Shown one piece after another: positions 6,984-26,775 of a stretch of DNA of 64,000 nt. The notes under the pieces were generated by a model. The model saw nothing but the letters and a program-made list of their open reading frames with translations, made no database searches and had not been told where the DNA came from. Source of the stretch: an uncultured Candidatus Saccharibacteria bacterium (GTDB lineage: Bacteria; Patescibacteriota; Minisyncoccia; Phycocordibacterales; JBBTRF01); the NCBI GenBank assembly GCA_964602975.1, contig CAZRTH010000002.1, forward strand, positions 7,668 through 71,667, in the 5' to 3' direction. A program made the position numbers and the translations under genes. Within the stretch, counting starts at the first letter, position 1. The number at the start of each line of letters is the position of its first letter.

Positions 6984-7107
6984 ATGAAAAAGCACCGCAT
7001 GGACACGCAGTACTCATGAAGGGCTTTTTCCTCGTTTCCGACACTAGTAATGATAACAATCATAGGTACTGGAGTCAACTTTTCTCTGTTCTGTTATACT
7101 TATCTTC

Positions 7108-8541: not shown

Positions 8542-8543
8542 GC

Positions 8544-8888
8544 TTATTTTACCTTCTCAACCACTCGCTTGAAAGTCTCAGGATGGAATTCGGCGAGATG
8601 CGCCATGATCTTTCGGTCGACTTCGATATTCTGCTTCTTCATCGCGCCGACAAATTTGCTGTATGAAAGGCCCATTGGGTCGAGTGCGGCGTTCATCTTC
8701 ACGATCCACAAGCGTCGCATCACGCCCTTCTTGTCGCGTCGGTGTGCGAAGGCGTATGAGCCGGCATGAGAGATCGCCTCGTACGCCATTCGCTCCTTGG
8801 TGCTTCGGCCAAATCGATAGCCCTTGACCTGCTTGAGGACATTCTTTCGGGTCTTTAGGGCGTTTGTTGCTTTCTTTACGCGTACCAT
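8544..8888 (-). CDS. rplT: 50S ribosomal protein L20
   Basis: 'MVRVKKATNALKTRKNVLKQVKGYRFGRS...RRLWIVKMNAA' aligns to L20 (MARVKRG...KKILK.AKGY...R.LWI.RINAA). Confidence 0.9.
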   Translation of the reverse strand: MVRVKKATNALKTRKNVLKQVKGYRFGRSTKERMAYEAISHAGSYAFAHRRDKKGVMRRLWIVKMNAALDPMGLSYSKFVGAMKKQNIEVDRKIMAHLAEFHPETFKRVVEKVK

Positions 8889-8925
8889 TGGGGTGTTGTT
8901 ATGCTTGTGTGGGTTTTAATAAAAT

Positions 8926-9126
8926 TTAGCGTCCGAGAGCGGCGTTGCCGCCGAGGAAGCGAGCTCGCGACTTGTTGGTCATGATGATCGAACCCATTCG
9001 GTTCTTCTTCATCTGGGAACGTCGTCGCTCCTTGGCATTGAAGTGGTTGTGACCTTTGCCTCGAGCGAGGACTTTGCCCGCTTTGGTGACTTTGAGGCGC
9101 TTGGTGTATGACTTGTTGGGTCGCAT
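8926..9126 (-). CDS. rpmI: 50S ribosomal protein L35
   Basis: 66-aa very basic protein between infC and rplT in the conserved infC-rpmI-rplT order; 'KVTKAGKVLARGKGHNHFNAK' L35-like. Confidence 0.75.
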   Translation of the reverse strand: MRPNKSYTKRLKVTKAGKVLARGKGHNHFNAKERRRSQMKKNRMGSIIMTNKSRARFLGGNAALGR

Positions 9127-9180
9127 GGGATTGATATTAAAATTCGATGTTATGTTTGTTTTTGTGTGTTTGGCGTTTCG

Positions 9181-9726
9181 CTATTTCTTCTCGATGATGA
9201 CAGTGAGGCCTTTCAGAGCCTTCTTCGGCGCTTCGGCGATCGTGTACTCCTCGGTGATCAGCTTGAGGATGCGCTCGAGTCGCTCTTTCAGGAAGTTGAA
9301 TTCCATGTACTTCGAGCGGCCGGTGAGGAAAAGGTCGATCTTGATCCGATGCCCCTCCTTCAGCCATTCCGATGCCTTTTTCGCTTTCAATTCAAGGTCG
9401 TGCTCGCCGGTGCCGATCTTCACTTGGACTGTCTTCACTTCGATGACGTGGGCTTTCGCCTTTGCCGCCTTGAGCTTCTTGTTCTGATCGTACTGAAACT
9501 TTCCGTAGTCCATGATCTTGGCGATCGGCGGGACTGCGCTCGGAGAGATTTCGATGAGATCAAGGCCTGCTGCCTGGGCTTTGTCGAGAGCGTCCTTCAG
9601 GGAAATGACCCCAAAGTTCTCTCCGACAGGCCCGATGACGCGAAGCTCCGCGACTCGAATTTGATGATTTATCCTGTGATTTACGGTGCTCACGATGTAT
9701 GAAGTAACCCAGCATTTATAGCACAA
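9181..9726 (-). CDS. infC: translation initiation factor IF-3
   Basis: 'INHQIRVAELRVIGPVGENFGVISLKDALDKAQAAGLDLIEISPSAVPPIAKIMDYGKF' aligns with E. coli IF3 '[59 protein letters not shown]'; true start probably a non-ATG codon slightly downstream of the ORF-track Met (alignment begins ~15 residues in). Confidence 0.85.
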   Translation of the reverse strand: MCYKCWVTSYIVSTVNHRINHQIRVAELRVIGPVGENFGVISLKDALDKAQAAGLDLIEISPSAVPPIAKIMDYGKFQYDQNKKLKAAKAKAHVIEVKTVQVKIGTGEHDLELKAKKASEWLKEGHRIKIDLFLTGRSKYMEFNFLKERLERILKLITEEYTIAEAPKKALKGLTVIIEKK

Positions 9727-9791
9727 TAGCCCTTTTTACGCAATGTTTTGGCCGACAGGGCGATTTTTGCAGGGCGTATCGCCCAAACTCG

Positions 9792-10751
9792 TTATTTTGT
9801 GGCCGTTTCTAGCCATTTCATTAGGATACCAAAGTCTTTTTCGCGAGCATCGGAGCCGAGGATGATAAATACGACATTCCGGGAGCTGTCTTGGATAGGG
9901 AGGCGGAATAGGGAGATGAGCGTCTCGCCGGCGGCGGAGGTGTAGCCGGTCTTGCCCCCGAGAAAGCGCGGATCGTTCACGAATAAATTGATATTTTGCA
10001 GGTCGCGATAGACCGGACCGTCGGTGGCGGCATAGACAGTGGCAGGCTGGCCGGCCAATCGACCGCCATCGAGCATCACTGTTTTTTGGCGAGTCTTGGT
10101 GACGGTCAAAATATCCGGTTGCAGATCCTTGACGCTTTTCGCTAGCAAAAGCAGGTCGTACGCGGTGGAACGATTTTGGCCCGAAAGTCCGGAGGGGTCG
10201 GCGAAGGCGGTGTGGGTCATGTCGAGCAGGGCAGCTTGGCGATTCATCTGCGAGACGAAGTAGCCGACATTGCCGAGGCCGTCATAGATGCCGGCGATCT
10301 GGTCGGCGGCAACATTGCTCGACTCCATCAGCAGGGGATAGAAGAGTTCTTGTACGGAGGAAGGCGCACCGGCTCGGAGGGCAGTGAGTGCGGTCACCAA
10401 TTTGGTGAGCGAAGCGATTGGCAGCTGGAGGGCGGGCTGACGGCTGACAAGCACTTGGCCGGTATCGACATCAGCGACGAGGAAAGCGGTGGCAGTGATT
10501 TTTTGTGGTCGACCAACTTTCTTGCTGATCAGAATATCAGGTTTGTCGAGCCACTGGAGTTTTGGTTTGGAGGCGGAGTCGATGACAGTGTTTGTGGCAA
10601 CAGTGCGATTGGCGGTGTCCGATGGAGGCGTGAGACGATCGAGGCCGGCTTGTACGACGAGAGAGGCAACAACGATGATACCCGTCCATTTGGCGGTGAA
10701 GAGAATGCCTTCAGTGTCGAGGCGACGAGGACGTGAATAGAGAGGATCCAC
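9792..10751 (-). CDS. D-alanyl-D-alanine carboxypeptidase (PBP5/6, peptidase S11 family)
   Basis: N-terminal TM/signal, 'AFLVADVDTGQVL' and SxxK active site 'IASLTKLVTALTA', later 'SAN' and 'KTG(YT)' like motifs. Confidence 0.75.
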   Translation of the reverse strand: MDPLYSRPRRLDTEGILFTAKWTGIIVVASLVVQAGLDRLTPPSDTANRTVATNTVIDSASKPKLQWLDKPDILISKKVGRPQKITATAFLVADVDTGQVLVSRQPALQLPIASLTKLVTALTALRAGAPSSVQELFYPLLMESSNVAADQIAGIYDGLGNVGYFVSQMNRQAALLDMTHTAFADPSGLSGQNRSTAYDLLLLAKSVKDLQPDILTVTKTRQKTVMLDGGRLAGQPATVYAATDGPVYRDLQNINLFVNDPRFLGGKTGYTSAAGETLISLFRLPIQDSSRNVVFIILGSDAREKDFGILMKWLETATK

Positions 10752-10857
10752 GGGATAATGATAGCATGGGGTAAAGGCATGTCTTGCTACCGAGGAAAGT
10801 CATTCTGGGATACAATAAGAGGTATTACGCCACGTATTTAGTTTATTTTTCTCCGCT

Positions 10858-12003
10858 ATGAAACACGAGAGTGAAGCGACAGCATCTGGAGGTCAAGGAG
10901 AGGCGATAGTTAAAGACGCAGATCTCCCTGAATCGGAATTCGAGCTGGGTTTTGAAGAGATCGCTCGGTCAAAGACAAAAGTGACTGAGGGGAGAAACAA
11001 GGTGCCTGCTGGGGAAGTTTTCCTTGTTAGGCCATGGGAGGACTACACCCTCGTTGCTTTGAAAGATAAGCCCTCTCTGGCCATATATGACGAGCACGGA
11101 GCCATGATCGAGAATTTCAAGGAAAACGGGCTTCTGCATAAAGGTGATACCAACTGGGCTAGCCTTATAAGAAGTTGTGGAGGAGGATCATATCTTCTGG
11201 ATAGTCTTGGAGCGCAGGGTTCACGAGACACATTAGCTTTTGATCAACTGGAGACTTTCCTGAAATGGCCTCTGCGTGAATACAACATTCGATTCAGTAC
11301 AAGTCTTTCGGACATACAGAGGGCCCTCGGTAGTGACCAATCTGTTGAAAAAGGATGGAAGTATCAGTCATTTGATAACGGGAAATATCTCCTCTGTATT
11401 GATCCGGAAACTAAAATCTTCTTCGGATACATAACAGAAAATGACAGAGGCATTCGGCTTGCTCCGAAAGACTGGAAGAAAATAGACTTCACCGCCAAGA
11501 GTAATACGTTACCTAAGGATTTTGTAGCGCATATCGAAAAAACGCTACAGCAAACCGATGACTTCAAAGAACTTAACGCGAAGTATGGCGCGATCATTAC
11601 CGATATTGGCATCAATATCATCGATAGTGCAAATCCTTCTGGCGCCCCCGTCTTTAAAGACCTCGTCCCATCTGTTGCTTCAAATATCACAGTCGACCCG
11701 AGCAACCCTGATACGGTGTATTACTGCCAGAGCGGCAATCCAAGGGAGATCACTCGGCTCGATATGACTGGCGATCCGACCAAGTGGCAGACGCGGTCGG
11801 CGGCTATTCCGAAGCAATACGGTGCGATCAAAAACCTCCAACTTGACCCAACCGGCTCATATTTCCTTCTCTATACTCAAACCGCGCTGGTGATGCTTGC
11901 AAAAGAGACACTCGAGGAAATCAAAGAAGTTCCCGGTCTCAAAGAGGCCAATTTTGACTCCCAAGGCCGCGTCCGAGCCGTGGCAAGGACGGTTATTTGG
12001 TGA
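10858..12003 (+). CDS. hypothetical protein, first gene of MoxR-vWA-TGase/Ubl block
   Basis: 381-aa ORF, stop overlaps the TTG/GTG start of next gene; no recognisable domain. Confidence 0.45.
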   Translation: MKHESEATASGGQGEAIVKDADLPESEFELGFEEIARSKTKVTEGRNKVPAGEVFLVRPWEDYTLVALKDKPSLAIYDEHGAMIENFKENGLLHKGDTNWASLIRSCGGGSYLLDSLGAQGSRDTLAFDQLETFLKWPLREYNIRFSTSLSDIQRALGSDQSVEKGWKYQSFDNGKYLLCIDPETKIFFGYITENDRGIRLAPKDWKKIDFTAKSNTLPKDFVAHIEKTLQQTDDFKELNAKYGAIITDIGINIIDSANPSGAPVFKDLVPSVASNITVDPSNPDTVYYCQSGNPREITRLDMTGDPTKWQTRSAAIPKQYGAIKNLQLDPTGSYFLLYTQTALVMLAKETLEEIKEVPGLKEANFDSQGRVRAVARTVIW

Positions 12004-14732
12004 CATATGCCGTAGACACAAGCGGCTTGGCTCAAGTGATGGAGAGAAAGAGGATTGCACGCCTAACACAAGGAGTAAATGCAACGGACCTTTTCAGGAT
12101 CGATGATCTGAAAAAGAAGGGAGGAAAAACTGCGGTTGAAAAAGAGAAGGATCTCATTCCGGTAAAAGAAAAAATGGAGCGCGATGTTGCGCCTGCTTTG
12201 GAATCTCTGGATACGCTCGAGCACGCGGCGAATTTCAGAAAGCAGCTGGAAGAATTGCGCCGACAGCTCCGTCAGCAGGGTCTCGCCAACGATGAAGTCG
12301 TTTTTGTAACAGAAGGGATCGAGGCTTCAGTCAAAGAGAAAGAGAAGCAATTTGTCTCAAAAGAAACGGTGCCGATGCTTGAGTCAATTGAAAAAGGCTT
12401 GGCAGCTGGGTTGTCTCTATCGACCGCTGTCATCCTTCGAGCGGATCTGGATCGGCTGAAGGCCACCGAGCTGTTAATGGACGACACTGTCCGAGGTAGG
12501 TACCATGCGTTGGTCAATACATTCAACTTGGCATATCAGGAATTATTCCAGCGAGAGGGAAGCAAGATCATCGAAGAGGTTCAGGGCTTGCTGAAAGGGA
12601 TACGAACACAGCTGGATGCGATCACCAACAAAAATGGTTTTGATGATTGGATGGAGTTTCGACTACCACAATATAAGAGCCGGCTTGGAGAGATGCTTCG
12701 CGACTGTCCGATCACAGCGGACGATGCATACAGGGCGATATCCGGAGCTCGTACTGAGTTGCAGACCATTGCGGCTGAATATCAGAAAAAGTTTGAGGAA
12801 GAATACGCGAAGGTTCGGGAGAAAGCTGCGGGACGAGTAGATGCGGTCGTTGTCGATCTGGAGGGGGATATTGCTGCTATTGTCAAAAGGCTTCAAGACA
12901 AAAATTTCAAGGATCGAGCTGCCGCCGAACAGTATCTTTCAAGTAGCGAAGCGAGGAGGGTTTTGGAGAGTGAGATTCAAGCTCTCGCTTCAGATCAGCC
13001 CGATATTGCCGAGGAGCTCAAGCGAGCACTCAGAGTCCAGATCTCAAATAGCCTGTCGGCCATTGAACGTGGCGCGCAACTCAATATCGCAGAGACCGGT
13101 CAGCAGATGGTACTTTTTGGCAAGACCACTTTCCCTAAGTGGGAGGCAAAGGTGAAGGAGAAGAGGAAGAGGGCTGTGAGCCTCACCTTCGAGACCGATG
13201 AGAGAAGCCATGGTCCCGGAGTGAAGCCTGATCAGATCCAAGGTGACGTCGTGTTTGCGGTGACAGACCAGAAAGGAGAAAAGAACAAGGTCGGTCCATA
13301 TGAAGGGTGGACAGATGAGCATGAGTGGCGCCTCGGTCTTCATGCTCTACGAGGTCAGAGCACCCCGCCTTCATATATGACCGCGGAGGAGTTTCGAAAT
13401 GTGAAAAAACAATACAGCGCTTGGGAAAGCGGAACGCTCAAGAAGGAGTATGAGACTCGACGCCAAGAGCTTGCTACTATCTACGCCACTCGCGAGAAGG
13501 TGGGAAAGCGTAGTGCTGATAAAGAAACCCTTTGGAAGACAATGTATCAAGCAAAGCTGAGGGACCATGCTGAGTTTCTTGCCAAGAATCACATCAGTCT
13601 GTTTCGGCGCGCGGATGCCGTAAGAGAGAGTGACGAGGTGGATACGAACGGCAAGGGATTCGTGCCAAGCTGGCAAAGCCACTGGGTTGTCGATCCTGAT
13701 ACGGAATATAACCTCGAACGAATGGCAGAAACATTCAAGATGCAGCTCGACCTGAGGGAAGGTGTACTCAATCTCGATGGTCATGCCGGTACAGGAAAGG
13801 ACGTTCTCATGAAAATGTTCAGTAATCGAACAAATCGACCATACTTCAGCACCGATTGTACGAAGTGGACCACCGAGTACGAACTTTCTGAAGACGTTGT
13901 GCTTGAGGCAAAGGACGGAGCAACCCAGACGATCAAGGTACCGAGCGCTGTTTTGAACGGCATCCAGACCCCAGGAGCGCTGGTGTATTTCAATGAGGTG
14001 AACGGCATGCCTGAGCAAGCGCAGATCTTCCTGCATGCCCTATGGGACGAAAAGCGATCTTTGACCCTCAAGACCAGCTCTGGAAAGGTGGTGAAGGCTC
14101 ATCCGACCGTACTTTTTGCAAGCTCAAAGAACCCTGGGTATCCTGGTACCTTCGACCCACAGTTTGCGACCAAGAGTCGTATGGTATCGATGGAGATCGG
14201 CTATCCTTCACTGCACACTATCGCCAAGCCGGAGGACAAGAATCCAAACAAGCCATTTAATTCATCCGAGGCTCTGCGTATCGCCCGCGAAGTCAGTTCG
14301 TTGTCAGACATGACCTTTGAACCGAACATGGACAGGAACGAATTTGTACAAATGTGGGATAGCCACGTGAATGGCATCAAAAATGGTGCTCCAAAGCCAA
14401 GCGCTGTCCAGGAGTTCGATATCAAGACCATTCTCGCGTTAGTACAGTTTGGCACCAAGCTTCGCGAAAACTTCAAATTGAACTTTGAGAAGAGCCGAGA
14501 TGCTCGCAACGCTCTCCCTGTCCATCAGCCACTGACCTCTCGCGAGTTGCGCAGGGCTGCATATGGACTCTCCAAGACTCCTGTTGATGAAAAGATCAAG
14601 GGCAATCCCGATACCACAGCTCGTGAGCTTCTGGAGCGTTTCTTCCTGAGCCACATCGATAAGACCGAGGATCGCGAGAAGATCAAAACGGCGATGGCGA
14701 CCTGGCGTTCTCAAAAGAGGGTAGCCGCTTAA
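11997..14732 (+). CDS. MoxR/AAA_5-family AAA+ ATPase with long N-terminal coiled-coil region
   Basis: C-terminal half: 'LNLDGHAGTGKDVLMK' (Walker A-like, Lys present but Asp in place of Thr/Ser), 'ALVYFNEVNGMPEQAQIFLHALWDEKRSLTL' (matches MoxR 'DEINRA.P..Q.ALL.A..E'), 'TVLFASSKNP' (ATQNP-like), 'FDPQFATKSRM', 'IGYPS'; N-terminal ~550 aa charged/coiled; start is TTG at 11997 or GTG at 12000 overlapping upstream stop. Confidence 0.6.
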   Translation: MVTYAVDTSGLAQVMERKRIARLTQGVNATDLFRIDDLKKKGGKTAVEKEKDLIPVKEKMERDVAPALESLDTLEHAANFRKQLEELRRQLRQQGLANDEVVFVTEGIEASVKEKEKQFVSKETVPMLESIEKGLAAGLSLSTAVILRADLDRLKATELLMDDTVRGRYHALVNTFNLAYQELFQREGSKIIEEVQGLLKGIRTQLDAITNKNGFDDWMEFRLPQYKSRLGEMLRDCPITADDAYRAISGARTELQTIAAEYQKKFEEEYAKVREKAAGRVDAVVVDLEGDIAAIVKRLQDKNFKDRAAAEQYLSSSEARRVLESEIQALASDQPDIAEELKRALRVQISNSLSAIERGAQLNIAETGQQMVLFGKTTFPKWEAKVKEKRKRAVSLTFETDERSHGPGVKPDQIQGDVVFAVTDQKGEKNKVGPYEGWTDEHEWRLGLHALRGQSTPPSYMTAEEFRNVKKQYSAWESGTLKKEYETRRQELATIYATREKVGKRSADKETLWKTMYQAKLRDHAEFLAKNHISLFRRADAVRESDEVDTNGKGFVPSWQSHWVVDPDTEYNLERMAETFKMQLDLREGVLNLDGHAGTGKDVLMKMFSNRTNRPYFSTDCTKWTTEYELSEDVVLEAKDGATQTIKVPSAVLNGIQTPGALVYFNEVNGMPEQAQIFLHALWDEKRSLTLKTSSGKVVKAHPTVLFASSKNPGYPGTFDPQFATKSRMVSMEIGYPSLHTIAKPEDKNPNKPFNSSEALRIAREVSSLSDMTFEPNMDRNEFVQMWDSHVNGIKNGAPKPSAVQEFDIKTILALVQFGTKLRENFKLNFEKSRDARNALPVHQPLTSRELRRAAYGLSKTPVDEKIKGNPDTTARELLERFFLSHIDKTEDREKIKTAMATWRSQKRVAA

Positions 14733-14741
14733 CACCTGTCT

Positions 14742-17700
14742 ATGAAATCACCGGAGGATCATTCTGAAAGCGTCCCGAGATCGAACAAGAAACATGTTCG
14801 AGAAATGGTCTTTCTCGCCGAACAGGCAAAGGAAGGCGCATTGAAAGTGCTACCAGGAAAGGCTTGGGCACAGCATTTTCCTGTTCCTGCCGAAGAACGC
14901 AGAGAGATCCTTCAGGGAGTTCTCGATGGAAAAGTGAAGCCGCAAGACGCAGAATCAAAGGTCACTCCAGACGCCTTGGTCTATGACGCCGCTGATCTCG
15001 ACAGGGAGGGTTTGGATGGAGTGAGCTCACGAATCTTTGATGAATCGGCGACGGTACAGTACTACGACTACCCGAGATTTACCAAGTTTGTCTCGGAGAT
15101 GAAGGGTACGAAGATCTCTGTCGGGGATTGCGAAAAGCTCTACGGAGCGATCACAAAAGCGAGGACTCAGAAAAAGCTCAGAGATGCTTTTGGAACTACA
15201 GGGCAAGGGCAGCTTGATGGTGTGTTGGTACGTGACGCGAAGGCGATCGTCAGGACCATCGATACCCTTCCTCCGACAGAAAAAGTCTTGCAAGCTCTCA
15301 AGTTGGATTGGCTCTGTAGAGATAGGGGAGCGATCGGGACGCTTGAGCGAGATGAGGTAGTGTCGAAACTTTCCGGTAGCGAAAGAGAGTTATTCAAGAA
15401 GCTCTCCACCGGGTACCGTCAGTACGTCGATCAGGGAGATGAGGCAGGGTACAAGGAATTGTTGGAAGGTATACGTGACAATCACTCTCTTGTTGAAGAG
15501 AAGAAAGAGGCATCTGATGCTCCGAGTGACAGCATGCAGAAGCTTGAGGAAGAGATCGAAGAGTACAAGAAGGATACCGGAAATCCCGGCACTCCAAACG
15601 ACCCAGCTATCCCTCCCGAAGACGCGGACGAGTATCATACGCCGGAAGGAGGGTCACCGGAACAGCCAGAACAAAGCGGTCCTTCCCAAGAGCAACAGGA
15701 ACAAAGACCGATTTTTGAGATCGAGCCACCTCTCGGCGGCTATTATGCTGGTGGGCGAAAAAGCTACTATGATCGCACGAGAAAGACTTGGAGCAAGAAG
15801 AAGCAGTTGAGCGAGTACGCCGGAGTACTTTCAGCATCAGGACGTCACACGCTTTCTGGCAAGACCGACAGAGGAGTGAAATCACTCGCTATTCCGAATA
15901 GTTATGCGTTGGACGCGGTATCTGTGAAATACACCGGCTCCAAACCGAGACTGCACCGTGACCAGAATGGCTGTTTCTATATCGAGACAGATGGACCGTC
16001 GACTTTCTCGGTTGAATTTGCCAAGGAAGACAAGCTGTTCACCGGACCAGTGGTGGCAGAGGATACAGAAAAACTGTACGCAGGAGCCCTTTCCACTGAA
16101 AGTGAAACTTTGTTGCAGGCATTGCAAGGTAATGCAATGAATAAGGCAGAACAGGTGCGTCAGCATATTCTAGCGAATCACTTTTATCCCGGCGGCGGAG
16201 ACTTGGGTGCGGCTCAGGCTGTCCAAGCGAAGCTCCGCCATGAATCAACTCCGGATGCTTATATTCAAAATATCGATAAGGCAGAATATCTGGAATGTTA
16301 CTCCTCGAACACTCTTTTTGTGGCGATGATCCGACAGGCTGGCATACCGGCTCGTCTCGTGATTGGTCACAAGGTAGAGGGTGCTCGCGATGGAAAATCA
16401 GCCATAACAGAGTCTACCGGACATGCATGGTCTGAAGTCTGGGACGGTGGCAAGTGGGTGAGATTTGACGCAACGCCCGCTCCGAAGCCAGAGGACAAGA
16501 AAAAAGACAATAAAGAAAAGGAGGATGATGCGGAAAAGGAAAGCGCTCCTGAGGCGAAAGACAATGGAAAGGAGGCTCCGCAGAAGGAGCAGGAAAAAGG
16601 AGGGACTCCGTCTGATGAGGAAAATGGCGAGTCGAAAGAGCAGGGGGAAGCTAGTGATTCTGATGTCCAGGAAGGCGAAAATAGTGTCCAACAATCAAAA
16701 GAAAAGCTCGAAAAGGACGCCGCTGAAAAAGAAAAGCTCGAAAAGAAACTCGAAAGCGAGAATTCATTCGAAGATCTAGAAAAAATAAAAGAGGAAATAC
16801 AACAGGCCGACCTTTTGGATGATATGCAGAAGGAGCTTGATGAAAAAGTCGAAGCAAAAGAAGAGCAAATGAAGGAATCCATCAAGGATGAACTTGATAA
16901 GATGGTGAAGGACGGTTTCTTGGATGAGGAAAAGAGAAACGAGCTGGAACAGAAGCTTCTTGAGGAAGATGCTGCTGAATTGGATCGTTTGAGAGAGCAG
17001 CTTGAACAGGAAAACTCACTCTACAACGAATATGAGAATATCCGTGATGAAGTGATGCCGCTGGTGGATAAGTGGTTTGAATTTTTTGTAGAGCGCTTGC
17101 CTCGAGAGCAGAATGTCGATGTGGATGAGGATTCTTTGACCCGCCAGGGCGTGTTCAATCGAAGGTCGGTGAACAAGGCGCGAAATTTGTTGTTTGGATC
17201 GATCAAGAATCCCCGTATCATCAAGTCATCTGTAAAGCCATTGTTCATGAGCTCGATCCTTGTCGATGTGAGCGGTTCGATGGCGGGAGAGAAGCTGCAG
17301 AATGCCCGGAAGCTCCTAGTCTTCTATTCTGAATTGTTCACAAAGATCAGCGAAGAATTCGGCTACATCCGATTTTCCATAAATACATTCTCTGATAGAG
17401 TGAACGAGATCAAAGCTTTCGATCAGGATTATTCCGCGACCCAGAGTTACCTTTTCCCTGACAATTCACGCTCGACGGTGAAATTCCGTCTCATGAACAA
17501 TGTTACCGCGCTAGGCGGCACGAACATGCTTGATTCAGTGAAGAAGGCGGCAGCTGATCTTAATCGAGAGACGCACGATTTTCCTGATTATGCATCGGCA
17601 TTCTATTTTGTTGGCGATGGAGAGGATACCTGTGGCAATTCTGGCAATGTGAGTAGCTTTTTGCAGACAAATGATGCCGAGAGGGGATTTGGCGATCACA

Positions 17701-17867
17701 TGAGATCAGCGATCATGCTGGGAACCGAGAGCCAGAAGGCGATTTTGGCGAATATTTTTGGTGAGGAGCATACTACCGTAGCTCCAGATCTCGATTCTCT
17801 GATCGAGGAGAGTATGCTTCGTTTCAACGATGATATTGAAGCGTATATGAACATGAAGACGGGGTAG
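14742..17867 (+). CDS. transglutaminase-like cysteine protease domain + acidic low-complexity/coiled-coil linker + C-terminal von Willebrand factor A (vWA) domain
   Basis: TGase core 'AEYLECYSSNTLFVAMIRQAGIPARLVIGH' (Cys ~16296-16298), 'GHAWSEVW...GKWVRFDATP' (His, Asp); vWA MIDAS 'ILVDVSGSMAG' (~17265), 'ALGGTNM', 'FYFVGDGEDT'; ~170 aa of Lys/Glu/Asp-rich low complexity between. Confidence 0.7.
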   Translation: MKSPEDHSESVPRSNKKHVREMVFLAEQAKEGALKVLPGKAWAQHFPVPAEERREILQGVLDGKVKPQDAESKVTPDALVYDAADLDREGLDGVSSRIFDESATVQYYDYPRFTKFVSEMKGTKISVGDCEKLYGAITKARTQKKLRDAFGTTGQGQLDGVLVRDAKAIVRTIDTLPPTEKVLQALKLDWLCRDRGAIGTLERDEVVSKLSGSERELFKKLSTGYRQYVDQGDEAGYKELLEGIRDNHSLVEEKKEASDAPSDSMQKLEEEIEEYKKDTGNPGTPNDPAIPPEDADEYHTPEGGSPEQPEQSGPSQEQQEQRPIFEIEPPLGGYYAGGRKSYYDRTRKTWSKKKQLSEYAGVLSASGRHTLSGKTDRGVKSLAIPNSYALDAVSVKYTGSKPRLHRDQNGCFYIETDGPSTFSVEFAKEDKLFTGPVVAEDTEKLYAGALSTESETLLQALQGNAMNKAEQVRQHILANHFYPGGGDLGAAQAVQAKLRHESTPDAYIQNIDKAEYLECYSSNTLFVAMIRQAGIPARLVIGHKVEGARDGKSAITESTGHAWSEVWDGGKWVRFDATPAPKPEDKKKDNKEKEDDAEKESAPEAKDNGKEAPQKEQEKGGTPSDEENGESKEQGEASDSDVQEGENSVQQSKEKLEKDAAEKEKLEKKLESENSFEDLEKIKEEIQQADLLDDMQKELDEKVEAKEEQMKESIKDELDKMVKDGFLDEEKRNELEQKLLEEDAAELDRLREQLEQENSLYNEYENIRDEVMPLVDKWFEFFVERLPREQNVDVDEDSLTRQGVFNRRSVNKARNLLFGSIKNPRIIKSSVKPLFMSSILVDVSGSMAGEKLQNARKLLVFYSELFTKISEEFGYIRFSINTFSDRVNEIKAFDQDYSATQSYLFPDNSRSTVKFRLMNNVTALGGTNMLDSVKKAAADLNRETHDFPDYASAFYFVGDGEDTCGNSGNVSSFLQTNDAERGFGDHMRSAIMLGTESQKAILANIFGEEHTTVAPDLDSLIEESMLRFNDDIEAYMNMKTG

Positions 17868-17995
17868 AAGTGTACTTTTCGCCGCGCCTCCAAAATCTTG
17901 ACTTATGGCCATATAATATGGTAATAAGTGTTGGTAGAACGGTGCATGTGCATCGGTCAATTTGAACCTTAACAATCAAACGGAGGAATTATCGT

Positions 17996-19489
17996 ATGTT
18001 CGCTATTCTCACGCGGATCCGGAGCTGGTTTGAGCGTTTGCTCGGCCAAGACCTCGAGCCGCTGAAAGAAGGTTTTCTTTCGTGCGACTCAGCTCAGAAA
18101 CAGGGGTTGGTGATGACGAAGTTCGAGCTCGAGGTAAGGCCTCGCCGTATCATGGGTGTTCTGCCTGTGTTCGGAGTTCGAAAAGTCGGTTCGGTCTCAT
18201 TTTTCGACGCGGTCAAAGCCCCCATTCGGTCTTCTCTCGCTTCGTTGAGTCATGAGTTGCGCCAAGTCCCTCGACGTGTCCATGATGCGGCCGAAAAAGG
18301 CCTCAAAATTGGAACCGAAAAAGCTGTTGATCAGGCAAAGGCAAAATTGAATGTCGAAACACAAAAGCTCCTTCAGAAATTTGACGAATCGCACCTTTCC
18401 GGGCTCATCAAGTCCGACAGGAATGTCTTTCGTCAAAAGCTTCTCGAGGCCCTCAGTGATCAGGCATCGCAAGTATTTGCCACTGCCACAAAGAAGCATC
18501 TGGCCGAACTCGTCCTGCGCATCCGACAAGAAACATCAGTTTCCGATTCATCGAGTGTCTCCGATGACAATGTCGCTTCATTGCCACTGCCGACCGGCAC
18601 ACGTTTCGTGTTCAGGAAAGGCAAGATGACCACGTTTGTCATCGAGCAACCGCCTCAAAAGCGCACGCTGAAAATCATGAATGAAGGTGGCGATAGATCG
18701 GAGATGGTTCAGTTGGCGCTGCCTTACGTCGTGTTCTTCATCGTCCTGCGCGGTCGCAGATCCGACAAGGCATACGTGCTCTTTCGGAAAGCTCCGCTGC
18801 GAAGCGTGAGAGACGAATTACTCTGCCCAGCTCTTCCCAACATCTTCGGAGACTTCAGCGTTTGTTTTGCTCCATCGGCAGCTAGGGACACCCTGGCAGA
18901 GATGGCGGAAGAATCGATCGCTAGCTTCTGGGGCGGCAGGTTTATCAAAACCGAAGTCGTCACCGAGGCTCACAGGAGGACCCCTATCGAAGATTGGGCT
19001 GAAGGGTCGAGAAAAGACTCCTTGTTTGGCATATCACATCCGTGGATGTCGGCCAAACAGAGTGTTGCAAGCATGATGGAGAAGATCAGCGCTGAATTCG
19101 TTGCTGATACCATTGCTGGCCAGAAAAAAGAAAAAGGCGGCAAGGAGATCGCTTCCGCGCTCGATGCGGCTGTCACCGCGCTTGCGACTAAGATCGAGAA
19201 CGAAATGAAAGAGACCTGCTTCAAGCTCGTTCCTTCATGGAACCTCGATCCGACGGTCCTTGCTCAAACAAGTGCAGGGTTCAAGCAGTCTGTCGCTGAG
19301 GTATGCACTGTAATTAAGGCGCAGCTTGGCGAAAAGATCGAAGGAACCTTGTCGAATGAGGCCTTGGAAGGAGCTCTTGAAGCAGCAATCCAACAAACGA
19401 TCGCCTCGATGAATGCGGACATGGACAAGCCGATGGCGGCCGCTCGCGAAGCGTTCTCCGCGATTCTTAAAGAAAAGGAGGCAAAATGA
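17996..19489 (+). CDS. candidate E2/UBC-like ubiquitin-conjugating-enzyme homolog (hypothetical)
   Basis: Motif 'LLCPALPNIFGDFSVCFAP' (Cys codon 18863-18865) resembles UBC active-site 'HPNI...G.IC(L)' spacing; preceded by predicted beta-strand stretch; gene stop overlaps JAB gene start (ATGA); RBS GGAGG upstream. Confidence 0.4.
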   Translation: MFAILTRIRSWFERLLGQDLEPLKEGFLSCDSAQKQGLVMTKFELEVRPRRIMGVLPVFGVRKVGSVSFFDAVKAPIRSSLASLSHELRQVPRRVHDAAEKGLKIGTEKAVDQAKAKLNVETQKLLQKFDESHLSGLIKSDRNVFRQKLLEALSDQASQVFATATKKHLAELVLRIRQETSVSDSSSVSDDNVASLPLPTGTRFVFRKGKMTTFVIEQPPQKRTLKIMNEGGDRSEMVQLALPYVVFFIVLRGRRSDKAYVLFRKAPLRSVRDELLCPALPNIFGDFSVCFAPSAARDTLAEMAEESIASFWGGRFIKTEVVTEAHRRTPIEDWAEGSRKDSLFGISHPWMSAKQSVASMMEKISAEFVADTIAGQKKEKGGKEIASALDAAVTALATKIENEMKETCFKLVPSWNLDPTVLAQTSAGFKQSVAEVCTVIKAQLGEKIEGTLSNEALEGALEAAIQQTIASMNADMDKPMAAAREAFSAILKEKEAK

Positions 19490-20166
19490 CCCCGATTCAT
19501 CTCAAAAAGACAGACGGTGCGAAGCAGTCTCCTGAGACGACCCATTACATTGCGGCCAGAAATGGTCTCTTCCTTCAAAAGAAGATGTGGTGGGTGGATG
19601 CTACGGTGCCTGTGGCTGAGGCGAGCAAGCTCAGGGTCCAACACCCTTCAGCGAGATTGCTTCTGCCTAAGCTTCCCGTAGAGATCTTGGCCCAAGCTCT
19701 GAAACTTGCGAAAGCAGTATACGACGTTTCCAAAAGCGAAGTATGTCTGCTCTTGCACTATGATGAGAAAACGGGCTATCAACTCACCGTTCCAGTGCAA
19801 CTAGTCACGCCCTTAAGCGTCGACTACAACGCTTCACAACGGGTGCCAGGAGCGCTCTGTGTAGGAACTATCCACTCGCACGGTAAGCTGCACGCGTTTC
19901 ATTCCGCCACCGACCATGCTGATGAAGAGACTGCAGATGGCGTCCATGTAACCCTCGGGAGCTTGGATGTGTATCCGCGATTCTCTTTGTCGGCAGAGAT
20001 GGCGATCAACGGGACGAGATTCCCCGTTGAGACTCAGTGGTTCGAAGGACTGGTTCTCGAACAAGAACGCATCTATCGTATCGATTGGCCGGCCATTGAT
20101 TCGTGGGAGGTTCCGCGGAAATGGCTCGATGTCGTCGAGCACAGGAAAGGAACACCATGGCCATAA
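19486..20166 (+). CDS. JAB/MPN (JAMM) metallopeptidase, deubiquitinase-like
   Basis: Canonical JAMM motif 'E...HSHGKLHAFHSATD' (HxH-x7-S-xx-D) with upstream Glu ('KSEVCLL'). Confidence 0.7.
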   Translation: MTPIHLKKTDGAKQSPETTHYIAARNGLFLQKKMWWVDATVPVAEASKLRVQHPSARLLLPKLPVEILAQALKLAKAVYDVSKSEVCLLLHYDEKTGYQLTVPVQLVTPLSVDYNASQRVPGALCVGTIHSHGKLHAFHSATDHADEETADGVHVTLGSLDVYPRFSLSAEMAINGTRFPVETQWFEGLVLEQERIYRIDWPAIDSWEVPRKWLDVVEHRKGTPWP

Positions 20167-20867
20167 AAGTGATCGGTCTCGGCGGTATCGGTAGTCAGTT
20201 GATATCGCCTCTGTGCCGCTACCTTGATTCGCAGAAGGACGGCAGCATTCAGATCGTCGTCATCGACGGCGACGCATACGAAGCCAGAAATGCCGACCGC
20301 CAGGAATTCTTGGATGTCGGCAATAAGGCTGAAATTACGGCTGCTCGGATGAGGCGGGATTTACCCGGTCTTCTCATCGAGGCGAAGCCTGAATACGTGA
20401 CGGAGGAGAACGTGTTCTTCATGATCAACAACGGCGATATCGTGTTCCTGGGGGTAGACAACCATGCTACTCGGAAACTCGTGTCCGACCGCTGTCGAGA
20501 ATTGGAGGACGTGGCGCTCATCTCCGGCGGGAATGAGCTGATCGACGGCAACGTCCAGATCTATCTCCGCATTGGTGGCAAGGAACTATCGGCCCCGATC
20601 ACGTATCTCCACCCGGAGATCGAACATCCGCGAGATCGGAATCCCGCGGAAATGAGTTGCGAAGAGCTCGCTTCGAGTGGAGTTCCACAGCTGATCTTTA
20701 CCAACTTGACCGCGGCCGTCCTTATGCTCTCAGCATTTCGAATGGTTGGCGCGGTCTTGGCAGGAAAGGGAAAGTTGATATACTCGGAGCAGTTCTTCGA
20801 TGTAGAAACCGGTAACGTCCTGACCTTCTTGCGCAAGCCAGAAGGTCATCACAGAAAGGCAACATGA
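20157..20867 (+). CDS. E1-like (ThiF/MoeB/ubiquitin-activating) adenylyltransferase
   Basis: Rossmann 'VIGLGGIGSQL' and 'VVIDGDAYEARNADRQ' (ThiF 'D.D.V..SNLNRQ' motif); ATG at 20157 with AAAGGA RBS, overlaps JAB gene end by 10 nt. Confidence 0.7.
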   Translation: MAIKVIGLGGIGSQLISPLCRYLDSQKDGSIQIVVIDGDAYEARNADRQEFLDVGNKAEITAARMRRDLPGLLIEAKPEYVTEENVFFMINNGDIVFLGVDNHATRKLVSDRCRELEDVALISGGNELIDGNVQIYLRIGGKELSAPITYLHPEIEHPRDRNPAEMSCEELASSGVPQLIFTNLTAAVLMLSAFRMVGAVLAGKGKLIYSEQFFDVETGNVLTFLRKPEGHHRKAT

Positions 20868-21139
20868 CAGAAACGACGACAACACCCGATGGCAGCGCGC
20901 AGCCTCCAGTGCTGGACGCGCCCAGTGTGCAGATCCAGTGTGGCGCCAACAGCCAGAGCATCACGCTCGGCGATGGCGAAGTCCTGACAGTGGGGAATGT
21001 GCGCGAGCGCCTCGGCGACGTGCTCAACCTCGCCCCCACTATGCTCGCCGTTATCGGTGACGAAACAGTGGACGACGACCGCGCCCTCCGGCCCGGAGAA
21101 ACGCTCCAGTTCATCAAGCAGTCCGGGACGAAGGGCTAA
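20864..21139 (+). CDS. ubiquitin-like beta-grasp protein (ThiS/MoaD-like), C-terminal Gly
   Basis: 91 aa; 'VQIQCGANSQSITLGDGEVLTVGNVRERLGDVL...MLAVIGDETVDDDRALRPGETLQFIKQSGTKG*' matches ThiS/MoaD pattern ending in Gly; start overlaps E1 stop (ATGA). Confidence 0.5.
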   Translation: MTETTTTPDGSAQPPVLDAPSVQIQCGANSQSITLGDGEVLTVGNVRERLGDVLNLAPTMLAVIGDETVDDDRALRPGETLQFIKQSGTKG

Positions 21140-21191
21140 CTTATCGGCCACCGCACTCGGCTTCCGTGATGCTGATTCGAAAACGCAACTC

Positions 21192-21221
21192 GGCCTCCTT
21201 TCGGGGAGGTCGGGTTTTTTG
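21192..21221 (+). terminator. rho-independent terminator after Ubl gene
   Basis: 'GGCCTCC-TTTC-GGGGAGGTC' hairpin followed by 'GGGTTTTTTGTTTGGG'. Confidence 0.5.
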
Positions 21222-21518
21222 TTTGGGAAAAGATGGGTAAATAAAAACAGCAACCAGCCACGATGTGGGGGTTGCCATTCGTCGGCGCTTGTTCAGTGCC
21301 TCCTCCGGCGAGCTTTCCGATGGGGTCGCCTGGGAAGGCTTTGATCTCGCACCTCTTCGACGAGAATGTGCTTGTCTACTTGGCACTTGGTGCATGAGCA
21401 GACAAATGAGACGCCGTCTCCTCCGTTGCATTCCGCATGTTTCCCTGATTGGCAGGGGCCACATGACCGTTGTTGCATGATCGTCCTTTCTTCTTTTTGT
21501 TTGGGGACTGGCGGTGAC

Positions 21519-21968
21519 TCAGAGGCTCATTCGATAGCTGTTCGTCTCACGGATCGTGAAGCCTAGCTTTTTGTAGAGGGCGTTGGCGGCGACACGGCTT
21601 GGGTTCGAGGTGAGATCGAGATGGCTTAGTGAGCCGGGATAGCTGCGGGCTTTTTCGATCAGGCGAGTCATTAATGCTTCGCCGATCTTTTGTCCGCGAT
21701 ACGCATCGTCGACGACCACGTCTTCGATCGTTCCGGAGCTATACAGCGCGGTATGTCGATAGAGAAGCAGGGCCATGCCGACGATCTTGTTCGGGCTGTC
21801 TGTGTCGCGGGCGACGCAGAGCACGCCGAACATCATGGCTCGACGGAGCTGGTTGGGCGAGAATTGCCTTTGGGGCGAGAGCTGGGAGAGGAGCGAGGCG
21901 ATTTGTAGCACCTCGGCTTCGCTGAGCTCGCTGAATGTTTCAATAAAAGAGTAGGTGATGGCGGGCAT
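21519..21968 (-). CDS. GNAT family N-acetyltransferase
   Basis: 'VVVDDAYRGQKIGEALMTRLIEKA' (motif A, Q/R-x-x-G-x-G/A) and 'ANALYKKLGF' motif B; start placed at internal Met (MPAITYSF) because the longer ORF would run through the ssrA terminator/3' end. Confidence 0.65.
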   Translation of the reverse strand: MPAITYSFIETFSELSEAEVLQIASLLSQLSPQRQFSPNQLRRAMMFGVLCVARDTDSPNKIVGMALLLYRHTALYSSGTIEDVVVDDAYRGQKIGEALMTRLIEKARSYPGSLSHLDLTSNPSRVAANALYKKLGFTIRETNSYRMSL

Positions 21969-22189
21969 AAGAAAGAGCTTTCGGTGAGGGTGAGGCTCGC
22001 GTATCGAGCCGCTGTATCCAAGGTACAGTTTAAATGGGAGGGAGTCAATTGTTGGTGAGTAATTGGTCACAGATAATTTCCTCGCCGACGCTCGGAAATT
22101 TCCGCGACCCCGCCTCGCGGTTCGGCCTGCTGTCCTCACATCCGCTCCGGCTTTCAATTCCTGCCTCCATACTTCCAAACAAAAGAAAA

Positions 22190-22208
22190 AACACTCACGA
22201 AGAGTGTT
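22190..22208. terminator. bidirectional hairpin terminator downstream of ssrA 3' end
   Basis: 'ACACTC-ACGAA-GAGTGT' stem-loop flanked by A-run (22181-22190) and T-run (22208-22216). Confidence 0.45.
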
Positions 22209-22221
22209 TTTTCTTTTGTTG

Positions 22222-22613
22222 TGGAGATGGGAGGAATTGAACCCCCGTGCAGAAGAGTCTAGTGAATGGGTCTACGAAGGGTAGGGCGCTTCTATGTCTG
22301 CGGGGCAGACAATTCGCGCGAGCCGTTATGAAACGACCGAAAAGCGGCTCGCGCTATTCCCATGATTTCGAATCGGCGGCGGGACTCCGCTGATCCCATT
22401 CCACAAATATAGCGTCAGGACCGAACGGTGTGGAAACCATCCGGCTGGCGTCGCTTAGGCTTTCGCGTAAGCGAATGCAAGGTCAGCCGCACCGAAGTAC
22501 GGAGACTTTACAGATCCAAGTTTTGCACTTAGAATTTCCAGCCTTTTTAAGAGTTACTGGAGCTCTCCTTCGCACATTCAAGAGATATTCTTCCGTCGAT
22601 GCCTGGCATCCCC
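22222..22613 (-). ncRNA. ssrA: tmRNA (SsrA, transfer-messenger RNA)
   Basis: Minus-strand 5' end 'GGGGATGCCAGGCATCGACGG' mirrors E. coli 'GGGGCUGAUUCUGGAUUCGACGGG'; 3' end '...GGGGGTTCAATTCCTCCCATCTCCA' is a T-arm plus acceptor strand complementary to the 5' GGGGATG; adjacent to smpB; 'UAAAAAGGCUGG...AAGU-GCA' context resembles E. coli resume-codon context; CCA not encoded. Confidence 0.7.
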
Positions 22614-22639
22614 GTATGAAAATCCTGCGTGCTCGATTG

Positions 22640-23095
22640 TCAACGATCTCGATACTCGCGAGCGACGTCGCGCGCGGCCTGCTTTTTCTTCATGGATTCG
22701 CGCTTGTCATGCTTCTTTTTGCCTTTCACGACTGCGATCTCTACTTTCAACTTCCGACCCTTATTATACACCGAAACAGGCACTATTGTCAAACCTTGTT
22801 TCGCCTCAATATTGGCCAATTCCTGAAGCTCTTTTTTGCTCAACAGGAGCTTGCGAATGCGGGCCTGGTCAAAATCTTTCGGGGCATTGAGGGGTTGGAA
22901 AGGGGGAATCTCGGTGTTCATGAGAAATGCTTCGCCGCCACGGATGGTGACGTAGCCGCCTTCGAGCTTGCCGAGCTTGGCCCGGACGGATTTCACCTCG
23001 GTGCCGAGCAACTCAATGCCTGCCTCGTATTTCTCGAGGATCTCGTAGTCGAGACCGATCTTTTTGTGCTGCAACAGCGCCATGGGTATCATCAT
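22640..23095 (-). CDS. smpB: SsrA-binding protein SmpB
   Basis: 'YEAGIELLGTEVKSVRAKLGKLEGGYVTIRGGEAFLMN...KLLLSKKELQEL...KGKKKHDKR' aligns with SmpB (FEAGLALQGWEVKSLRAG...DGEAFL...KLLLNQREL...KGKKQHDKR). Confidence 0.85.
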   Translation of the reverse strand: MMIPMALLQHKKIGLDYEILEKYEAGIELLGTEVKSVRAKLGKLEGGYVTIRGGEAFLMNTEIPPFQPLNAPKDFDQARIRKLLLSKKELQELANIEAKQGLTIVPVSVYNKGRKLKVEIAVVKGKKKHDKRESMKKKQAARDVAREYRDR

Positions 23096-23237
23096 AGCAT
23101 GGGGTATGACGGAGAAAAGGAGAGTTGCCAGAACGCTTTACTTTATACCCGAATTATGGTATTTATATAGTCGGCCTCGTAATAGAAAAACTACATAACC
23201 AAACATAGACAACAAGGAAAAAGAGAAAGGGAAATGC

Positions 23238-23843
23238 ATGAACAACACGAACCTGTCCGTCGGTCTGCTCGTCTCTTTTGGTTTCGTCCTCCTCCTGCTC
23301 GCCATCTTGGTCGGCACTATCTGCTATCGGCTCCACAAGCGCAAGCTGCGTCGGTGCAAGTGCCTCCTGCCTGGTGGCGAAGAGTGCGGCTGCAACCCGA
23401 AGCGCATTGGTCAGCTCTGGCGTCTCGTCGATCCAAACAAGGGCACCGACAATCCAAGCGAGGGTGTGAAATGGCTTGCGCTCGTGCTCACTCAGTGTAG
23501 AACCACAGGGGTGGTCCACTTGGTGAAGGACGAGCAAAAATACTTCAACCCTGTCACGCGTTGGTGGAAGCGTTTGTTCGAGCGAGCGGCATTTTGGCCA
23601 GATTTCGAGCTACTCGTCAGTGCACAAGAAAGTCTGCGAGTGGCGCAGCTCCTCGAGGAGATCGTTCTCACCAGCGGACAGCCCGCTACGATGTTGCTTG
23701 TCGGACCGAAGCGCGATACTGAAATGACTGAGCGCCGAAAGGCAGTGCTACGGATCCTCGATCGCCGTCGGCGAGCGAGGGAGGGGAAGCCTCTCATGCC
23801 AGTTCCGGCTTTGCCGCTCCGCTCGCTTGCGGACTCGCCATAG
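23238..23843 (+). CDS. hypothetical membrane protein with Cys-rich juxtamembrane motif
   Basis: N-terminal TM helix 'LLVSFGFVLLLLAILVGTICY', then 'RRCKCLLPGGEECGCNPKR'; Arg-rich C-terminus. Confidence 0.4.
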   Translation: MNNTNLSVGLLVSFGFVLLLLAILVGTICYRLHKRKLRRCKCLLPGGEECGCNPKRIGQLWRLVDPNKGTDNPSEGVKWLALVLTQCRTTGVVHLVKDEQKYFNPVTRWWKRLFERAAFWPDFELLVSAQESLRVAQLLEEIVLTSGQPATMLLVGPKRDTEMTERRKAVLRILDRRRRAREGKPLMPVPALPLRSLADSP

Positions 23844-23958
23844 CAGCATTCCTTGCCTTCGATAGTCCCCATTTGCCTTCGCGAACGCGTCTCCATCACG
23901 GAGCGCGTTCATTTTGTTTTCTTTTTGTCTTCCTCTCGAAAATCTGTATAATCAGGCG

Positions 23959-26699: not shown

Positions 26700-26775
26700 G
26701 CGCCCGTAGCTCAGTTGGTAGAGCAGGTGTCTTATACACACCTGGCCGGGGGTTCGAATCCCTCCGGGCGCACCA
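26700..26775 (+). tRNA. tRNA-Ile (anticodon UAU, decodes AUA), CCA encoded
   Basis: Cloverleaf: acceptor GCGCCCG/CGGGCGC, D-arm GCTC-AGTTGGTA-GAGC, anticodon stem GGTGT/ACACC with loop C-T-TAT-A-C, T-arm GGGGG-TTCGAAT-CCCTC, ACCA end. Confidence 0.7.

Follow-up and report, generated by a model that had tools for sequence, protein, structure and literature searches.

Adjacent MoxR-vWA-transglutaminase-like and Prok-E2_D-type ubiquitin-like modules in a Patescibacterial genome

The window analysed here is a stretch of 64,000 nt from contig CAZRTH010000002.1, and all coordinates given below are positions within it. It comes from a member of the Patescibacteria (candidate phyla radiation, CPR), and the homologues bearing a source name were all from Patescibacterial metagenome-assembled genomes (MAGs), except for one "Syntrophomonadaceae" MAG. 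The subject is a block of seven open reading frames (ORFs), all of them present as listed in an earlier note on this DNA, which had read them as one seven-gene operon for an ATPase-gated conjugation system. In the present analysis the block divides into an upstream pair, made up of an AAA+ ATPase gene and a gene for a protein with a transglutaminase-like (TGL) and a vWA domain, and a downstream cassette of four genes for conjugation of a ubiquitin-like protein (Ubl). The pair and the cassette are two modules inherited INDEPENDENTLY. That they are two independent units, adjacent only in this Patescibacterial genome, is given a probability of roughly 0.8. The features of the block are as follows.

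10772..17897, no strand: 7.1-kb segment consisting of exactly the ATPase/TGL-vWA pair, absent at the syntenic locus of the relative L001 (DNA alignment).
10858..12003, plus strand: N-terminal part of the ATPase gene (ORF1), 381 codons of approximately 1292, not a separate gene (alignment to the homologue P0019).
11980..11985, plus strand: frameshift site, one base missing relative to the homologues, leading from frame 1 to frame 3 (comparison with P0019).
11997..14732, plus strand: C-terminal part of the ATPase gene (ORF2), with a helical middle region followed by an AAA+ domain of the AAA_5/MoxR clade (CbbQ/NorQ/CobS-like), from motifs, matches to sequences of solved structures and PF07728 on homologues.
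14742..17867, plus strand: p3, the partner of the ATPase, a soluble protein of 1041 aa with an N-terminal region, a transglutaminase-like Cys-His-Asp domain, an E/K-rich linker and a C-terminal vWA domain with a metal-ion-dependent adhesion site (MIDAS) (Pfam and motifs).
17897..17927, plus strand: promoter-like element of the cassette, TTGACT-N18-TAATAA, in which a TG shortly precedes the second hexamer (conserved in relatives).
17996..19489, plus strand: p4, 497 aa, with a central E2-like domain (approximately 195-375, Prok-E2_D-type), a candidate catalytic Cys290 and long helical regions on both sides (motif and profile links).
19486..20166, plus strand: p5, a JAB/JAMM metallopeptidase with a DUF2016-like α+β extension at the N-terminus (Pfam matches and motif).
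20157..20867, plus strand: p6, a short (236 aa) ThiF-type E1-like adenylating enzyme (ThiF match).
20864..21139, plus strand: p7, a small Ubl candidate with the C-terminus ...SGTKG followed by a stop codon (conserved C-terminus).
21187..21216, plus strand: intrinsic-terminator-like hairpin that ends the cassette, as the earlier note had read at the end of the block (13 pairs, 7 of them G-C, then the T-run TTTTGTTT).

ORF2 is covered in full by homologues of 1280-1300 aa, on which PF07728 (AAA_5) is recorded. With the closest of them, P0019 (1289 aa), ORF1 aligned over P0019 residues 28-375 at 50% identity (E = 3e-117). Summed, ORF1 and ORF2 give 381 + 911 = 1292 aa, to be compared with the single protein of approximately 1290 aa in relatives. 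The frameshift of 1 nt lies near 11982-11984. At this junction, frame 1 reads GRVRAV followed by ARTVIW and a stop codon, and frame 3 goes on with GKDGYLVTYAVDTSGL, where P0019 has GRIRAVDKAGFLVTYAPDTRGL. Because the homologues carry a single protein of approximately 1290 aa and the reading continues across the two frames, ORF1 and ORF2 are, judged from the sequence, the halves of one gene. The count of seven genes is therefore too high by one, and the supposed overlap at 12003/11997 is a frameshift and not a gene junction. The other junctions proposed in the earlier note hold: the gap at 14732/14742 is 9 nt, the ORFs at 20166/20157 overlap, and 4-nt overlaps of the ATGA type are found at 19489/19486 and 20867/20864. 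The missing base does not mark a gene boundary: it reflects a real mutation that inactivates the gene, or else a mistake in the MAG consensus. The ATPase/TGL-vWA unit may thus be inactive in the window genome, or the frameshift may have arisen in assembly. Programmed frameshifting at 11982 was ruled out as the site lacks a slippery heptamer; no homopolymer was found there either.

The AAA+ domain occupies residues ~590-745 of ORF2, with the Walker A motif GHAGTGKD at residue 595 and a Walker B-like motif, LVYFNE, at 662. The proposed AAA_5 assignment could not be read by Pfam on ORF2 itself and stands through the family record of the homologues and through sequence matches to solved CbbQ/NorQ structures, the closest of which reached an E value of 3e-9. 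In addition, ORF2 matched phrog_249, a phage CobS-like family, with an E value of 2e-13. It should be mentioned that, within window 13779-14005 (ORF2 residues 595-669), the Walker B-like motif has Asn in place of the Asp of MoxR proteins. The 65%-identical P0019 also has this Asn (VVYFNE), which is therefore characteristic of the family and did not arise by mutation in this genome. The N-terminal ~380 aa of the ATPase (10858-12003) gave no family match: a match to a Vps18-type β-propeller was non-significant (E = 0.079), and Pfam and NCBIfam scans of p1 at E values up to 10 returned nothing useful.

The domain composition proposed for p3, a transglutaminase-like domain fused to a MIDAS-bearing vWA domain, was confirmed by the Pfam match to Transglut_core (E = 5e-13) and by intact motifs. 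The catalytic Cys-His-Asp triad (ECYS...GHAW...FDAT) is intact and the MIDAS motif (DVSGS...GGTNM...GDGED) is complete, and both sets of residues are invariant in the lineages L005 and L007. The matches to VWA and VWA_2 were sub-threshold, and TerY matched with an E value of 3.8e-5. No transmembrane segment was predicted in p3, and no hydrophobic 19-mer exceeded a Kyte-Doolittle value of 1.3. The TGL/vWA gene lies directly 3' of the ATPase gene in every lineage inspected for the neighbours of the pair, and in two other lineages it encodes approximately 1023 aa. The linker of p3 (window 16480-16900) is a low-complexity region rich in E, K and D, with short direct DNA repeats such as 16697-16715 and 16727-16745; in its position between the TGL and vWA domains it is reminiscent of the acidic linker preceding the MIDAS domain of midasin. 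The exact sequence of p3 has no record in the gene-position collection, in which neighbouring proteins from the same NCBI contig are recorded. The deposited annotation of p3 probably has another start codon or a pseudogene label.

The first gene of the cassette, p4, had been put forward as a candidate E2/UBC-like protein. Its motif LPNIFGDFSVCF (LPN-x7-C) contains Asn282 and Cys290, both of which are invariant in the 15 sequences of alignment A1. The canonical E2 signature is HPN...C, and the spacing from Asn to Cys in p4 is the same. Close homologues of p4 are few, only 17 among 5.8 billion clusters. A profile of its central domain, made from alignment A1, found 1492 relatives among 1.84 billion representative proteins. 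When ten distant relatives were scanned, seven matched Pfam Prok-E2_D (PF14460), three of the ten at or above the 25-bit cut-off. An NCBIfam scan of ten distant relatives, nine of them shared with the Pfam scan, gave weak PRTRC_B matches in four. Scans of p4 and of its central domain against Pfam and NCBIfam at E values up to 10 returned nothing useful. With hhalign, the p4 profile aligned to single plasmid Prok-E2_D proteins with low probability and with the N-x7-C motifs in register. The isolated domain was modelled with a pLDDT of 88. A Foldseek search of this model against the PDB found nothing significant (only spurious matches to PB2 cap-binding domains at a TM-score of ~0.15), and a sequence search of the PDB with the p4 profile found coiled-coil noise only. 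Because p4 has a PN-x7-C motif with invariant Asn and Cys, and because distant members of its family match PF14460, it is assigned as a divergent E2 of the Prok-E2_D type. The E2 assignment thus stands on the motif and on the family link to Prok-E2_D, with no significant match in the structure comparison; it is well supported by sequence and weakly by structure.

The other three proteins of the cassette bear out what had been proposed for them. In p5 the JAMM motif HSH-x7-S-xx-D is present together with an upstream Glu, and Glu85, His130, His132, Ser140 and Asp143 are invariant in 25 homologues; Trp36 is nearly invariant, and Arg is not strictly conserved. The matches of p5 were to Prok-JAB (E = 5.8e-6), DUF2016 (E = 3.8e-4) and PRTRC_A (E = 1.6e-12, 47.4 bits compared with a cut-off of 101.8), and some of its homologues are labelled "PRTRC genetic system protein A" by JGI. 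The identification of p6 as a ThiF-type E1 follows from its ThiF match (E = 2e-17). Its GLGGIGS and DNHATR motifs and the loop Cys in NPAEMSCEEL are invariant in seven lineages, and its ATG start at 20157 agrees with the starts of the homologues. The protein p7 has 91 residues and ends in Gly. Its C-terminus, [SA]G-x-KG followed by a stop codon, is invariant in seven lineages, so that the Gly seems to need no processing for exposure. The PDB profile matches of p7 were to ubiquitin-like proteins only, at a non-significant E value of ~1, and Pfam and NCBIfam scans at E values up to 10 returned nothing useful.

A sulfur-carrier pair of the ThiF/MoeB and ThiS/MoaD kind, serving thiamine or molybdopterin synthesis, might also consist of a protein such as p6, which matches the ThiF and MoeB equivalog models weakly, and a small protein with a Gly end such as p7. 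However, these equivalog scores are far below the cut-offs (48.6 bits for adenyl_thiF, where 275 are demanded), as is the PRTRC_ThiF score (46.7 bits compared with 144.75). Furthermore, p7 ends in KG and not in GG, the JAB and E2-like genes invariably flank, and no thi or moa gene occurs in any of the neighbourhoods. A sulfur-carrier function is therefore considered extremely improbable.

The distribution of the two modules bears on their relationship. Among lineages with at least 700 bp of sequence upstream, p4, JAB, ThiF and Ubl form a compact four-gene cassette in 11 lineages besides that of the window (L001/L002/L017, L003/L004, the P0010 contig, L009, L010/L020, L011, L013, L018, L019, L021 and L022), and in none of these 11 is an ATPase or TGL/vWA gene located upstream. 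The cassette is chromosomal, with housekeeping genes around it, and occurs only in Patescibacteria; it was found in 2 of 185,579 species representatives in a scan of GTDB and at seven loci in a metagenome scan. The pair, in turn, is flanked in L005/L006 by genes for a Mur ligase on one side and an aminotransferase on the other. In L007/L008 it lies downstream of the ribosomal-protein/rpoA cluster, after two small genes, with genes for a VanW-domain protein and a solute-binding protein beyond. No Ubl gene was found within 10 kb of the pair in either of these two lineages. Linkage of pair and cassette is thus seen in one of 12 cassette lineages and one of three pair lineages.

The relative L001 shows the cassette without the pair at the same chromosomal position. 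It is a close relative: IF3 is 98%, L20 96% and the RNase-J-like protein 84% identical, and the flanking proteins in general are 68-98% identical. Its gene order, β-CASP, L20, IF3, S11 peptidase (minus strand), cassette and GNAT (minus strand), is syntenic with the window on both sides. At the DNA level, L001 9795-9881 corresponds to window 10686-10771, and L001 9903-10233 to window 17898-18228. This amounts to a clean indel, with 22 bp in L001 (9881-9903) in place of window 10771-17898. No repeats were found at the indel edges. In L011 and L018 the junction between the S11 peptidase gene and the cassette is as in L001.

This geometry also raises the question of whether the adjacency arose in assembly, by a chimeric join at ~17895 of the MAG contig. 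An independent Logan contig from run SRR8931233 (L014) matches window 17895-20588 at 100% identity, so that 3 bp separate its first position from the indel edge at 17898. Its start at 17895 suggests a branch in the assembly graph, caused by strain-level presence or absence of the 7.1-kb pair or, less likely, by a chimeric join. On the other hand, contigs in Logan tend to be short and their ends can have many causes, and this 2.7-kb contig also ends inside p6; moreover, the left edge at 10771 joins cleanly to the upstream region of the S11 peptidase gene as well. A chimeric join is accordingly regarded as unlikely.

The claim of one operon had passed over the gap of 128 nt between p3 and p4 (17868-17995), which bears the promoter-like element. 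The pattern TTGAC[AT]-N17/18-TAATA[AC] is conserved upstream of p4 in L001, L011, L009 and L010. The element at 17897..17927 was not reported by a default promoter scan. It is taken as the cassette's own promoter region, because the gene upstream diverges in L001 and L011. A second element, TTAACAA, lies ~20-25 nt upstream of the p4 start and is conserved in the same four lineages; it could be a regulatory site.

Some points weigh against the reading of two independent units of these kinds. The neighbourhoods of the pair were inspected in only three lineages, the ATPase homologues numbering roughly 80 in all, and p4 itself gives no direct match to Prok-E2_D or any other Pfam family. In addition, all seven ORFs are co-directional and no convincing terminator is present between p3 and p4. 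As no good terminator follows p3, read-through transcription from p3 into the cassette is possible in the window genome. The same lack of a strong terminator before 21187 would suit a single co-regulated system, in fact of six genes, in which Ubl conjugation is gated or carried out by the ATPase together with the TGL/vWA protein, for example as Ubl tagging combined with an AAA+ unfoldase and a peptidase. Such a combination exists in nature, since MoxR-vWA proteins together with a complete Ubl set have been described (Kaur, Burroughs, Iyer & Aravind 2020, PMC7159879). Against it stand the rarity of the linkage, the syntenic relative without the pair, the promoter-like motif of the cassette itself, the frameshift in the ATPase gene, and the absence here of the RING E3 and the Ubl-E2 fusion of the Ubl systems described in that work. 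A coupled system is therefore very unlikely, and as a conserved system it is refuted. The single seven-gene system of the earlier note fails on the same evidence: the cassette occurs alone in 11 lineages and the pair alone in two. The neighbourhood comparison found separate units with unrelated neighbours in relatives, which is the outcome that the earlier note had named as speaking against its own proposal.

With two independent units as the preferred reading, each module can be compared with described systems separately. The cassette belongs to the Prok-E2_D/JAB/ThiF/Ubl class, that is, type 6d of Iyer, Burroughs & Aravind 2006 and the B/A/ThiF/C-like part of PRTRC, of which it is a Patescibacteria-specific variant. 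Row 6d in Table 1 of that paper lists a Ubl, a JAB protein with an extra N-terminal α+β domain, an E1-like protein, an E2-like protein without the HPN histidine and an α-helical protein. The same four components are found here: an E2 with a catalytic Cys and without the HPN histidine, a JAB protein with the N-terminal α+β domain, a short ThiF-type E1 and a Ubl. In the nearest plasmid-borne relatives of the ThiF protein, on Firmicutes plasmids of Alicyclobacillus and B. thuringiensis, the order Prok-E2_D, JAB, ThiF is shared. There are also differences from type 6d. In the cassette, the E2 domain lies between long helical arms within a protein of 497 aa, and a separate α-helical protein is missing. 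According to the comment on 6d in Table 1 of Iyer 2006, the E2 has a His that follows the catalytic Cys and is absolutely conserved, whereas p4 lacks such a residue: no invariant or near-invariant His follows the Cys in alignment A1. The position of the Ubl gene downstream of the E1 gene is a further difference. The cassette also differs from PRTRC as defined in TIGRFAM, which includes a ParB homologue and proteins D and E, in that ParB and the other PRTRC genes are lacking and that the PRTRC_A and PRTRC_ThiF scores are well below the NCBIfam cut-offs. Furthermore, p4 and p7 had no NCBIfam PRTRC matches, and ParB was found in none of the neighbourhood tables. The literature on PRTRC, Prok-E2 and DUF2016 yielded annotation-level mentions, and a functional study was not found in it.

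The logic of E1, E2 and JAB, with or without a Ubl, and the presumed chemistry of adenylation, thioester formation and conjugation are shared with Bil (BilABCD, Type I/II), Bub (6E/DUF6527) and Cap2/Cap3 of the Type II cyclic-oligonucleotide-based anti-phage signalling system (CBASS) (PMC11601596). With the PADLOC models for Bil, Bub and CBASS, however, p4, p5 and p7 gave no match, and p6 matched only weakly, in the part of the Cap2 "E1-E2" models that corresponds to E1 (E = 4e-4 and weaker). This mismatch rules out the cassette as a Bil, Bub or CBASS system. In addition, the cassette has no DUF6527 protein, its E2 has a Cys where that of Bub has Ser, its E2 and E1 are separate proteins in contrast to Cap2, and no CD-NTase or effector gene is present at the cassette.

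The pair corresponds to the MoxR-vWA-transglutaminase-like operons of the YebA/TgpA type, which consist of three genes, are "very common" and are predicted to act in ATP-dependent protein processing (Zhang & Aravind 2012, PMC3495828). As in these operons, a MoxR-clade AAA+ ATPase, a vWA domain with MIDAS and an intact TGL Cys-His-Asp triad are genetically linked, and the pairing is conserved in L005-L008. With TGL and vWA joined in a single soluble polypeptide, the pair has two genes instead of three. It also differs in that p3 has no transmembrane helices, compared with eight in YebA, and in that its ATPase has an N-terminal extension of ~900 aa and is closest to CbbQ/NorQ/CobS. MoxR, DUF58 and TGase genes also occur together in the bifidobacterial PFNA cluster.

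The only described co-operonic case of MoxR-vWA with JAB, E1, E2 and Ubl is the FtsH-type variant of the vWA-MoxR ternary conflict systems, which has a full Ubl-conjugation set (PMC7159879). The third component of these systems is VMAP, iSTAND, FtsH or a β-propeller. FtsH is encoded within the operon, and a RING E3 and a Ubl-E2 fusion are present in addition to caspase-like effectors and EAD adaptor domains. The linkage of pair and cassette in the window is not conserved. Pfam scans of the window genes found no RING or other E3. An FtsH gene with standard FtsH_ext, AAA and Peptidase_M41 domains is located at 23914-25941 (plus strand), 2.7 kb downstream of the cassette and beyond the GNAT and tmRNA genes. 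This likeness looks coincidental, because FtsH is not near the cassette in relatives. As MoxR-vWA with transglutaminase and MoxR-vWA with Ubl have both been described already (PMC3495828; PMC7159879), the novelty that the earlier note saw in these combinations does not hold.

From the observed gene content, motifs, homology and independent distribution, a chemistry may be inferred for each module. In the cassette, p6 is predicted from its sequence to adenylate the already exposed C-terminal Gly91 of p7. The activated p7 would then pass as a thioester, possibly via the invariant Cys of the E1, to Cys290 of p4, and p4 would transfer it to amines of target proteins. The JAMM peptidase p5 might reverse these conjugates. 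The helical arms of p4 are probably used for binding of a target or partner and are candidates for target selection or oligomerisation. A role of the cassette in defence or in regulation of protein fate is possible.

The mechanism suggested for the pair rests on analogy with MoxR-vWA pairs and MoxR-vWA-TGL operons (PMC3495828). The vWA domain, with its MIDAS, might dock a substrate or the ATPase as a co-chaperone of the MoxR-clade ring. Hydrolysis of ATP would remodel the bound protein, and the TGL domain, acting as a thiol peptidase or transamidase, might cleave or transamidate the client.

A bolder view would see in the window a lineage-specific capture, by which the MoxR-type unfoldase/TGL-peptidase pair came to lie directly upstream of the cassette and is read through into it, so that proteins would be tagged, unfolded and cleaved in a proteasome-like circuit. 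More modestly, the Patescibacterial Prok-E2_D cassette, with its helical-arm E2, could be a defence or host-interaction system of these epibiotic bacteria. Very little probability is assigned to these proposals.

Two genes on the downstream side of the block are listed for context.

21519..22178, minus strand: GNAT acetyltransferase gene, outside both modules (syntenic in L001).
22219..22613, minus strand: tmRNA (ssrA) gene (Rfam RF00023, 93.8 bits).

The proximity to ssrA mentioned in the earlier note is real, with the single GNAT gene between the tmRNA gene and the block, but no evidence was found for the suggestion that the block is an island integrated there. An att-like repeat and a compositional break are lacking. 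No direct repeat of the tmRNA 3' end was found in 7000-23000, and no integrase was found among the scanned genes of 7108-25941, a scan outside which some small ORFs fell. The flanks of the block are syntenic with both L001 and L011.

The tmRNA was found by its Rfam match and was not called by ARAGORN; Patescibacterial tmRNAs may exceed the heuristics of this program in divergence. ARAGORN called a tRNA-Ile with the anticodon TAT at 26700-26775 (plus strand). A tRNA-Ile(TAT) is an uncommon bacterial route to the reading of AUA, compared with the lysidine-modified CAT. In L001, the region downstream of the cassette (13500-21491) contains an apparently fragmented GNAT gene; beyond this gene lie an AAA_15/AAA_21 ATPase pair and a tRNA, and then a LOOT RNA (RF03000) and a serine recombinase. 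It had no tmRNA at the Rfam gathering threshold. This region is variable, possibly mobile or of a defence type, and is absent from the window.

The single conjugation system read from the block in the earlier note would, if true, have added a new architecture to those of ubiquitin-like signalling in bacteria; this was not borne out. What the locus offers instead are two modules. The cassette is a compact example of the experimentally uncharacterised Prok-E2_D/type-6d class, with four small, catalytically intact, chromosomal components in ultra-small Patescibacteria, in which this class is rare (~17 protein clusters). The pair is a Patescibacteria-specific, soluble version of the MoxR-vWA-transglutaminase-like systems, in which the TGL and vWA domains are fused. 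Neither module alters current concepts, and either is usable as a minimal biochemical model.

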